Assembly (NCBI GenBank): GCA_000996205.1
Contig: LBYO01000001.1
Span: 3,077 to 67,076 of the forward strand
Reading direction: 5' to 3'
Source of the DNA: Parcubacteria group bacterium GW2011_GWA1_40_21
GTDB lineage: Bacteria > Patescibacteriota > Minisyncoccia > Phycocordibacterales > GWA1-40-21
Length of the DNA stretch: 64,000 bases
The translations under genes were made by a program, and so were the position numbers. The notes below the pieces were generated by a model. That model saw nothing but the letters and a program-made list of their open reading frames with translations. It made no database searches and was not told the DNA's origin. Shown here in pieces: positions 8,577 through 9,325 of this stretch (position 1 is its first letter; each line of letters begins with the position of its first letter).

Positions 8577-8809
8577 AATTCAATCTCCTTTCTTATTGTG
8601 AAATGAACAATCATAGCCGGACACCCGGCTGATTACTAAATTCAGACTAATAAAAAAAGCGACAAAAAGCAAGAAAACCCCACTCCGCGATTACGCTCCG
8701 CGGGGTCATACCACTTAGAAGTGGTAATTTTAAAATATTTTTTACGCTCAGTTTATTATAAATCTTTCAAGTGCGTGCACCGCGAAGCCCCGCTCTGCGC
8801 GGGGCGAAG

Positions 8810-8840
8810 TGGTGGACCTATGGGGAATCGGACCCCAGCC
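8810..8840 (-). other. tRNA 3'-end fragment (T-arm + acceptor 3' strand + CCA) identical to 3' end of adjacent tRNA-Ala
   Basis: Minus strand reads ctggggtccgattccccataggtccacca; same 29 nt as 8887-8915 of the tRNA-Ala gene. Confidence 0.6.
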
Positions 8841-8870
8841 TTCCCGATGTTCATCGGGATGTTCTACCGA
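8841..8870. repeat. 30-bp direct repeat ccttcccgatgttcatcgggatgttctacc (copy 1) containing 18-bp palindrome tcccgatgttcatcggga
   Basis: Exact repeat at 9227-9256; the two copies bracket the GIY-YIG gene + tRNA-Ala. Confidence 0.8.
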
Positions 8871-8885
8871 AAATAAACTTTGCTC

Positions 8886-8958
8886 GGTGGACCTATGGGG
8901 AATCGGACCCCAGCTTCATCCATGCCATGGATGTGTAATACCATTTTACTATAGGCCC
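8886..8958 (-). tRNA. tRNA-Ala (anticodon GGC)
   Basis: Manual cloverleaf: acceptor gggccta/taggtcc with G3:U70, D-arm gtaa-aatggta-ttac, anticodon arm catcc-atGGCat-ggatg, T-arm tgggg-tccgatt-cccca, discriminator A. Confidence 0.65.
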
Positions 8959-9212
8959 ATTTTTATTACTTGTTCCTTGACTATTAGATCAAGTATTTTT
9001 TTATTCTTACATTTTTTTAATTTATTTTCCATCCGCACGGCATCAACATTAGATGGGAATAATTTTTTGAAAACCAGCTTCATCGGTCTTTGCGATCTTA
9101 AGGATATTGTTTTCCCTGAATTATGCTCTTTTAATCTATTTTCAACATCATGACTTGAACCAATATAATACCTATCTGTTTTTTCACTTTGTAATATATA
9201 AATCCATGTCAT
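8949..9212 (-). CDS. small GIY-YIG nuclease (YhbQ/Slx1-like, ~87 aa)
   Basis: N-terminal YILQSEKTDRYYIGSSHDVENRLKEHNSG matches GIY-YIG signature (Y..Y.G....L..RL..H); longer ORF to 9242 would start inside palindrome/tRNA-like segment so later Met preferred. Confidence 0.7.
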   Translation of the reverse strand: MTWIYILQSEKTDRYYIGSSHDVENRLKEHNSGKTISLRSQRPMKLVFKKLFPSNVDAVRMENKLKKCKNKKILDLIVKEQVIKMGL

Positions 9213-9226
9213 AAATTTAACAACAA

Positions 9227-9256
9227 CCTTCCCGATGTTCATCGGGATGTTCTACC
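9227..9256. repeat. 30-bp direct repeat copy 2, fused to a tRNA 5' half (acceptor + D-arm) on minus strand (9257-9272)
   Basis: Minus strand reads gggcctatagttcagtggtagaac + palindrome; same acceptor strand as tRNA-Ala. Confidence 0.7.
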
Positions 9257-9325
9257 ACTGAACTATAGGCCCTGCCGAAAATCAGTATATATTAAATGAG
9301 ACTTTTTTCAATTACTTAAGATGTT

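Follow-up and report, generated by a model that had tools for sequence, protein, structure and literature searches.

The stretch analysed here, referred to as the window, comprises 64,000 nucleotides (nt) from Parcubacteria group bacterium GW2011_GWA1_40_21 (contig LBYO01000001.1, positions 3,077 to 67,076). On its minus strand, between positions 8810 and 9311, an intact transfer RNA (tRNA) gene, tRNA-Ala(GGC), and a small GIY-YIG nuclease gene are nested within a partly triplicated tRNA-Ala gene. Read along that strand, the locus begins with a promoter-like site, TTGAAA-16-TATACT (9284-9311; 10 of 12 consensus matches), located 12 nt upstream of a 5' tRNA fragment, GGGCCTATAGTTCAGTGGTAGAACA (9248-9272), which consists of the acceptor 5' strand, the D arm and position 26. 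This fragment (9272-9248) directly abuts an 18-nt palindrome, the first copy of a hairpin that we denote H (TCCCGATGAACATCGGGA; 9247-9230), which fills exactly the slot of the anticodon arm (positions 27-43). After H follows AAGG, and the sequence then diverges into the leader of an open reading frame (ORF) for an 87-residue, single-domain GIY-YIG nuclease (8949-9212). The last codons and the TAG stop of this ORF form positions 1-10 of the intact tRNA-Ala(GGC) gene (8886-8958), with the TAG contributed by positions 8-10. A 17-nt spacer, GAGCAAAGTTTATTTTC (8869-8885), leads to a 3' tRNA fragment (8810-8868) made up of 9 nt of D-loop and D-stem 3' strand (GGTAGAACA), the second copy of H (8842-8859), the variable loop, the T arm, the acceptor 3' strand, A73 and CCA. 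The unit is ~460 bp long.

The enclosed tRNA-Ala(GGC) was called by ARAGORN and scored 58.3 bits against the Rfam tRNA model (gathering score 29); it has a G3:U70 pair and the anticodon loop ATGGCAT, and its CCA is not encoded. The two partial copies, at 23.3 and 21.3 bits, do not reach the Rfam gathering score, and ARAGORN called neither of them as a tRNA. The 5' fragment matches the enclosed tRNA at 20 of 25 positions, the differing part being the D arm; the D arm of both outer halves is unlike that of the enclosed gene. The 3' fragment agrees with the 3' part of tRNA-Ala at 30 of 31 positions and shares with it an identical T-arm and acceptor block of 29 nt (8811-8839 and 8886-8914). In the intact tRNA as well as in the 3' fragment (8810-8839), the T-loop reads TCCGATT, in which a C replaces the near-universal U55. 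The same T-loop is present in L001 and L031 (the prefix L denotes related loci described below), and the remaining tRNAs of the window have the usual TTCGA. Rejoining the two halves would not restore the canonical 7-nt anticodon loop: the resulting cloverleaf would have a loop of 8 nt or, if the stem is paired over 7 bp, one of 4 nt. Since an intact tRNA-Ala(GGC) lies between the partial copies, decoding is preserved. A sequence homologous to the promoter-like site was found in L004, and as judged from its sequence and position the site could drive fragment, ORF, tRNA and fragment as a single transcript.

An earlier note, made from the letters of the window alone, had described the locus as a composite of an intact tRNA-Ala(GGC), a GIY-YIG gene and two halves of a tRNA paralog bracketed by direct repeats. 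All of these pieces are present, including the cloverleaf with G3:U70 and the ORF at 8949-9212, both of which the programs accepted. The 30-nt direct repeat is exact, as claimed, and extends to 33 nt when one mismatch is allowed; its copy at 9227-9256 had been placed correctly, and the other copy lies at 8839-8868, 2 nt away from the 8841-8870 given there. The note was also right that no integrase is nearby: the neighbouring genes encode a glycosyltransferase, a phosphoribosyltransferase, FtsW/RodA and Bac_transf proteins, and a Pfam search of the ORFs at the locus revealed no tyrosine or serine integrase between or beside the repeats.

The 87-residue ORF matches the Pfam GIY-YIG family PF01541 (E=4.6e-15). 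An alternative in-frame ATG at 9242, within H, would yield a protein of 97 residues, and the Pfam domain spans residues 12-81 of this longer form with no second domain matched. Candidate catalytic residues are Y5, Y16, R26, H30 and E62. The NCBIfam collection gave a weak, sub-threshold match only, and the nearest solved structures are the small UPF0213 GIY-YIG proteins 1zg2 (E=1e-7) and 1ywl. An overlap of 9-10 nt between ORF and tRNA, as at the present locus, was seen in many of the related loci. As the ORF ends at a TAG that belongs to the tRNA, processing by RNase P would be expected to compete with translation of the nuclease mRNA. The same kind of overlap occurs elsewhere in the window: on the plus strand, the end of a 222-residue ORF (25831-26564) extends into tRNA-Ile(UAU), with the stop at the TAG of positions 8-10 of that tRNA. 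This ORF has an N-terminal helix-turn-helix domain (Pfam HTH_23) and a motif that looks like LAGLIDADG.

To assess recurrence, homologs of the 87-residue protein were traced to their contigs, yielding a set of protein-found loci. An exact copy of H lies just upstream of the ORF in five of five locus groups whose protein is at least 58% identical to that of the window (L001-3, L004, L005-7, L172 and L166), and in all five groups it sits within a 5' tRNA fragment, though the neighbouring genes are entirely different. In L166, whose host is tRNA-Gly(GCC), the 17-nt anticodon arm has been replaced exactly by H, and the preceding 25 nt are identical to the intact tRNA-Gly downstream. Three further groups, at 45-48% protein identity, have other hairpins that are likewise joined to partial tRNAs, namely TCCCGATAGAAGCATCGGGG at tRNA-Pro (L167/168), the NTS-like TCCCGCAAAGCGGGGGAATCC at tRNA-Ser (L169/170; NTS being the hairpin repeat of the Ssn nucleases introduced below) and TCTCGAAACAGTAGTTTCGAG at tRNA-Glu (L171). 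The hairpin type thus differs between protein identity groups and therefore tracks the nuclease clade, not the tRNA.

We also scanned 185,579 species-representative genomes for H followed by AAGK, which gave at least 119 loci. At least 77 H sites in at least 55 loci have flanks that match the adjacent tRNA, and H occupies exactly positions 27-43 in partial copies of 13 tRNA species: Ala(GGC, UGC), Pro(GGG, UGG, CGG), Val(GAC, CAC, UAC), Arg(GCG), Gly(GCC), Thr(GGU), Ile(GAU) and Met(CAU). Among the matches listed, tRNA-Ala(GGC) is by far the commonest host. The palindrome, which the earlier note had described as fused to the 5' half, is thus neither the anticodon arm of the paralog itself nor a damaged one; because the same hairpin fills the same slot in fragments of 13 tRNA species, it is to be assigned to the nuclease module and not to the tRNA. 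The genomes belong mostly to Patescibacteria (Nomura-, Uhr-, Doudna-, Taylor- and Staskawiczbacteria, Saccharibacteria, Peribacteria and Gracilibacteria), with a few in Bacteroidota, Chloroflexota, Armatimonadota and Gammaproteobacteria. At least 37 loci, including the window and seven protein-found loci, have a GIY-YIG ORF of the same family at most 1.5 kb from H.

The arrangement has a fixed polarity. Among the 46 classifiable fragments in the matches listed, all 25 of the 5' fragments are found upstream of the intact tRNA, all 21 of the 3' fragments downstream. In the 5' fragments, positions 1-26, often identical to the intact gene at 26 of 26 or 27 of 27 positions, precede H, after which variable loop and T arm continue for a median of 10 nt. 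The 3' fragments consist of a median of 9 nt of D-loop and D-stem, H and then the complete 3' part, often identical at 31 of 31 or 33 of 33 positions. Accordingly, the distances of the breakpoints from H cluster across different tRNA types. Two gene orders occur, fragment-nuclease-tRNA(-fragment) and fragment-tRNA-nuclease-fragment, and H is found on both sides of the ORF also in L001, L003, L031, L047, L056, L095, L108 and L115. Fragments are present on one side only in many loci and occur also singly, without an ORF; such ORF-less forms look like decay products of recombination between repeated tRNA segments. Arrays of two to five fragments are seen in L001, L004, L020, L027, L088 and L101. 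No lone, uninterrupted H-bearing tRNA was found among the loci examined. The nearest to it is the five-copy tandem array after tRNA-Ala in L020, whose near-complete copies ARAGORN calls as tRNAs with a 4-base anticodon. In a rough tree of the nucleases, those hosted by tRNA-Gly(GCC) and tRNA-Ala(UGC) are nested among those hosted by tRNA-Ala(GGC), which as a sequence-based grouping suggests movement between tRNA genes.

The hairpin has the form TCCCGATG-NN-CATCGGGA (18 nt). Its stem pairing is retained through compensatory changes in variants such as CCCCGATGGACATCGGGG and TCCCGACTGTCGTCGGGA. On the tRNA-sense strand the central dinucleotide is GA in 19 loci and TC in 5 among the matches listed; strand-specific recognition therefore fits better than symmetric recognition of a duplex. 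In L001 and L003 the two H copies differ at this dinucleotide, TC versus GA, which a simple duplication would not explain. A possible ancestor of H is the anticodon arm of tRNA-Ala(GGC) itself, a proposal drawn from likeness of sequence: the loops read ATG-NN-CAT and ATG-G-CAT, both arms are near-palindromes, and tRNA-Ala(GGC) is by far the commonest host.

Copies of H and hairpins related to it are not confined to tRNA fragments. In the window, the palindrome TCCCGATGNNCATCGGGA occurs three times compared with 0.00 expected from 100 shuffles, so that these copies are not due to chance. The third exact copy, with the same central AA, lies on the plus strand at 18761-18778 and has flanks that are not tRNA-like; it is located inside an insertion in the 16S ribosomal RNA (rRNA) gene, upstream of a group I intron core. 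The rRNA gene (17880-20239) is interrupted after GGATTAGATA, the inserted region 18748-19114 opens with the exact H and holds an H-like hairpin with a 12-nt loop at ~18886-18913, and the intron core follows (Rfam match at 19115-19332). In L041, from Bacteroidales, the RNase P RNA gene (3471-3807; Rfam 206.7 bits) has an exact H (3490-3507) plus AAGG among its first 40 nt, directly preceding the GAAAGTCCGGGC motif; this could be chance or a further structured-RNA host. Five loci from unrelated phyla (L010, L012, L050, L089 and L119) carry H within the conserved context GGGATTCAAGGGTGACAGCGGAGC...H...GGTCGGTGAGACCCTATGGAGAAGTT, which no Rfam family matches at the gathering score and which may be an unannotated structured RNA. 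Finally, in the Saccharibacteria loci L056 (minus strand, 975-1070) and L074 (4792-4895) the D-loop of the 5' fragment holds two additional hairpins, one a copy of H split centrally by an AT-rich insert and the other the compensatory stem variant TCCCGACTRTCGTCGGGA. Dead fragments appear to accumulate hairpins.

Within the species, the element is present in nine of nine assemblies, that is, the window and eight metagenome assemblies with an identical phosphoribosyltransferase. Since these eight assemblies are independent, the structure is not an assembly artefact. Spacer and 3' fragment together form a 75-nt unit whose copy number varies in the population: there is one copy in the window and in six other assemblies, two in L179 (2053-2501) and at least three in L177 (1898-2501), where the array is interrupted by a scaffold gap. 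This variation within one species suggests ongoing recombination. The junctions are shared with the relatives L001 and L004, whose nucleases are 70-83% identical, and this, together with the presence of the element in all nine assemblies, indicates that the arrangement here is old and fixed. The earlier note had read the locus as a tRNA gene disrupted by, or recombined with, a small cassette, with repeats that may be target duplications, and proposed a search for related genomes with an empty site. When this comparison was made, it gave no indication of a recent insertion with target-site duplication, and neither an empty site nor a free-standing uninterrupted paralog was found: all nine assemblies are occupied, and the syntenic L004 also carries the element, which is the ancient, fixed arrangement that the note itself had named as evidence to the contrary. 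At 39 metagenome loci with relatives of the downstream phosphoribosyltransferase (58-70% identity), the upstream glycosyltransferase, tRNA-Ala, GIY-YIG gene and H are all absent and synteny is lost.

These features call to mind the Ssn nucleases (PMC11893778, Chenal 2025). SsnA of Neisseria meningitidis is a 94-residue single-domain GIY-YIG enzyme, and Ssn recognises its hairpin repeat, called NTS and in generalised form SRM, solely in single-stranded DNA, which it cuts a few nucleotides upstream (5') of the hairpin. Hairpins typically flank the ssn genes on either side, the type of hairpin varies together with the nuclease across bacteria, and control of transformation as well as an origin akin to that of insertion sequences have been proposed (PMC11893778). 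On balance, and with modest confidence, we favour the view that the tRNA-Ala locus is a nuclease-hairpin module of the Ssn/NTS kind that lives within a tRNA-Ala(GGC) gene; classical homing, a role at the RNA level, an integrase scar and an intron all rank below it. By analogy, the likely cognate site of the 87-residue protein is H, which is present on both sides of its gene.

From the anatomy, the recurrence, the pairing of hairpin with nuclease clade and the copy-number polymorphism we infer a substrate, cut sites and a route of mobility. Following the Ssn precedent, the nuclease would bind H extruded from single-stranded DNA and nick ~7-10 nt 5' of it. A nick on the sense strand would fall in the D-loop, where the 3' fragments start, and one on the antisense strand would fall in the T-stem or T-loop, where the 5' fragments end. 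Recombinational repair between near-identical tRNA segments would then make, homogenise and amplify the partial copies. The same process might occasionally shift the module to other tRNA genes, with the conserved D arm and T arm serving as short homologies. The tRNA promoter may express the entire unit, and linkage to a tRNA gene and its promoter would keep the module expressed and make it hard to lose.

Several points weigh against this interpretation. The single-strand specificity and the position of the cut are extrapolated from Ssn, and the precise first replacement of an anticodon arm by a hairpin is not explained. The SRM consensus HGTCWYN(0-2)YYVSBRHN(0-5)WNVSBRGN(0-2)RNCYNB is matched by none of 156 H sites on either strand, and the best solved-structure matches belong to UPF0213, which may be a sister family to the Ssn clade (CDD cd10448, GIY-YIG_unchar_3). 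The clustering of breakpoints could reflect a conserved extent of the repeat unit rather than cut sites. Some 40% of the first-scan matches were unrelated coding or chance occurrences, and the conservation of the hairpin is free of bias only in the protein-found loci because the scan pattern required exact arms. Mobility is unproven, as no pair of filled and empty alleles was found among the loci examined.

The strongest competitor is classical homing, in which a GIY-YIG cassette with a replacement tRNA-Ala would have inserted into a resident tRNA gene and the 30-bp repeats would be the target-site duplication of a staggered cut. GIY-YIG homing endonucleases are known in tRNA clusters, such as SegB of phage T4 (PMC2330249); the halves overlap by ~30-33 bp, as filling-in of a long staggered cut would give; the outer D arms differ from that of the enclosed tRNA, as expected of separate origins; and genomic neighbourhoods vary between lineages. 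We nevertheless consider homing unlikely. The protein has no DNA-binding domain, unlike the characterised homing GIY-YIG enzymes, and the target would already have to bear H, although no uninterrupted lone H-tRNA occurs in the loci examined. Neither an empty allele in the nine species assemblies nor a presence/absence polymorphism was encountered, and the junctions shared at 70-83% protein identity point to an old arrangement. The unequal H copies of L001 and L003, and fragments that occur singly without an ORF, are also at odds with it.

Less probable still is a function at the RNA level, according to which the hairpin-substituted pieces would be signals for processing, stability or control of translation, or halves that join or pair into a tRNA-like RNA with a 4-nt 'anticodon'. 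The exact replacement of positions 27-43 preserves cloverleaf geometry, the promoter-like site before the 5' fragment would allow one transcript, ARAGORN reports 4-base anticodons for the near-complete copies of L020, and RNase P cleavage would remove the stop of the ORF, inside the tRNA, as a possible expression switch. Nearly all H-bearing copies, however, are fragments unable to form an acceptor stem of their own. Their number varies within the species and they are often one-sided, which is unexpected for a required RNA partner. H also occurs outside the tRNA context, in the 16S insertion, and the change of hairpin type with nuclease clade points to recognition by a protein. No pathway that joins tRNA halves is known in bacteria.

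Partial tRNA copies that lie as direct repeats beside an intact tRNA are a common trace of integrative elements (PMC9897764), so that the partial tRNAs could be read as att-site remnants of a decayed element with the GIY-YIG gene as a passenger. This is very improbable: apart from the lack of an integrase at the locus, no integrase-family Pfam match was found among the called genes of the protein-found relatives, the unit is shorter than 0.5 kb, att recombination would not give both 5' and 3' fragments with a foreign hairpin as anticodon arm, and the same pattern recurs at 13 tRNA species. The idea that the outer tRNA is interrupted by an intron, of group I or another kind, which contains both ORF and inner tRNA is effectively refuted, the group I intron in the 16S gene of the window notwithstanding, since an Rfam scan of 8300-9700 at E<=1 gave no intron family, the 'exons' overlap by 30 nt instead of abutting and the rejoined anticodon loop has 8 nt; a paper on tRNA introns in Patescibacteria places them at position 35/36 and makes no mention of GIY-YIG.

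Two mechanistic variants were set aside. A symmetric duplex cut at the central NN with 2-nt overhangs, which H copies interrupted at the centre would still allow, was not adopted as the main model, as NN is strand-asymmetric and the protein is a bare domain like Ssn. Campbell-type and circular-permutation models do not yield both gene orders.

A bolder extension of the module interpretation, which we put forward only tentatively and judge less likely than not, is that the locus represents an undescribed class of selfish element specialised on tRNA genes. Such an element would consist of a minimal nuclease for single-stranded DNA and a hairpin that mimics, and is probably derived from, the anticodon arm of tRNA-Ala(GGC). 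A tRNA gene would be divided by it into overlapping halves, and the host would survive through an intact copy that the element brings along or restores. The universally conserved D-arm and T-arm sequences would give it the homology for hops between tRNA genes and lineages, with neither transposase nor integrase.

For Ssn-type nucleases and their hairpins, whose role and origin are so far a matter of proposals, the present loci tie such a module to a definable target, tRNA genes. There it leaves structural footprints: the halves overlap, their polarity is fixed, the breakpoints cluster and copy number varies within a species. For annotation, it follows that hairpin-armed tRNA fragments and 'tRNA-???' calls with 4-base anticodons in candidate-phyla genomes are to be regarded as footprints of the module and not as novel decoders. 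If mobility should prove true, genes could move by means of nothing more than a 90-residue hydrolase and the repair systems of the host, and the modules would be a source of small site-specific nucleases for single strands, a family whose specificities are new.

Several other RNA genes show related features. In the region 21446-21700 of the window (plus strand), 45 nt separate tRNA-Ile(GAU) from a downstream 3' partial copy of it (21565-21625) that runs from the D-loop to the CCA end, with the same breakpoint, a native anticodon arm and no H; H-like hairpins follow it, such as TCCCGAAGAACATCGGGG at 21657. At 5470-5544 on the plus strand, adjoining the 5S rRNA gene, ARAGORN calls a tRNA-Ile(AAU) that has a Pro-like acceptor stem, CGGGGCC...GGCCCCGA, and an anticodon loop, TGAATTT, without U33. 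Rfam does not report it at the gathering score; possibly it is a further tRNA-like gene whose anticodon arm has been altered. The 3' end of the 16S rRNA gene contains the start of an ORF for a LAGLIDADG_2 endonuclease (20045-20947, plus strand; Pfam E=5.5e-38). The genome has several different homing-type nucleases at RNA genes. In L001 (2545-2881), L002 (725-1175) and L003, a second GIY-YIG gene, of 91 residues, lies directly upstream of tRNA-Arg(CCU). It is preceded by a 5' tRNA-Arg(CCU) fragment whose D-loop is broken by a 66-nt insert rich in CCGAC...GTCGG hairpins, a different hairpin type within the same general plan.

Literature searches on GIY-YIG proteins with tRNA halves, on Patescibacteria and on SsnA revealed no description of the present architecture. 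Several known systems share parts of it. SegB is a free-standing GIY-YIG homing endonuclease that, as here, is encoded amid tRNA genes. It cuts duplex DNA, mostly with 2-nt 3' overhangs (PMC2330249). According to a further report, anti-defence loci of phage T6 undergo segmental amplification that is promoted by SegB (PMC13096335), an effect comparable to the fragment arrays described here. In contrast to the present protein, which is a catalytic domain alone, characterised GIY-YIG enzymes have added DNA-binding domains, and SegB belongs to a phage and not to a bacterial chromosome, with no cognate hairpin flank, anticodon-arm substitution or tRNA halves described.

Elements of the REP/RAYT and IS200/IS605 types resemble the locus in that a small nuclease gene lies between recognised single-stranded hairpins that are also dispersed in the genome, an analogy that the authors of the Ssn study drew for their own system (PMC11893778). 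Those enzymes are HUH tyrosine transposases with covalent intermediates, as opposed to a GIY-YIG hydrolase. Because such a hydrolase cannot itself transfer strands, any mobility here must use host repair.

Ssn comes closest. The earlier note had held that nothing comparable is a standard element; this does not apply to an ssn gene flanked by NTS hairpins, which has already been described (PMC11893778), but it does hold for the embedding in tRNA genes, since that paper makes no mention of tRNA. The one window match to the SRM pattern, TGTCATTCCCGTGAAAACGGGAATCCAG (25726-25753, plus strand), is a near-canonical hairpin of the Neisseria NTS/SRM type that lies between ftsH and a helix-turn-helix ORF with no GIY-YIG gene beside it; a similar hairpin occurs in L132 at 2817, near tRNA-Arg. 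The present hosts are mostly Patescibacteria, and the hairpin here replaces the anticodon arm in partial tRNAs around an intact one. In other respects the two systems correspond. Both have a single-domain GIY-YIG protein of ~90 residues with Tyr, Tyr and Glu similarly placed, Y5, Y16 and E62 being spaced as the mutated residues Y6, Y17 and E64 of SsnA (a comparison of spacing, not an alignment). The gene lies between two copies of one hairpin, as in NTS-ssnA-NTS, and this flanked layout resembles an insertion sequence that lacks a transposase. H shares with NTS the TCCCG...CGGGA stem core and a loop of 3-4 nt, the hairpin type co-varies with the nuclease clade and extra copies of the hairpin occur elsewhere in the genome. 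Taken together, the locus is one instance of a recurrent and apparently undescribed, tRNA-embedded variant of an Ssn-like system.

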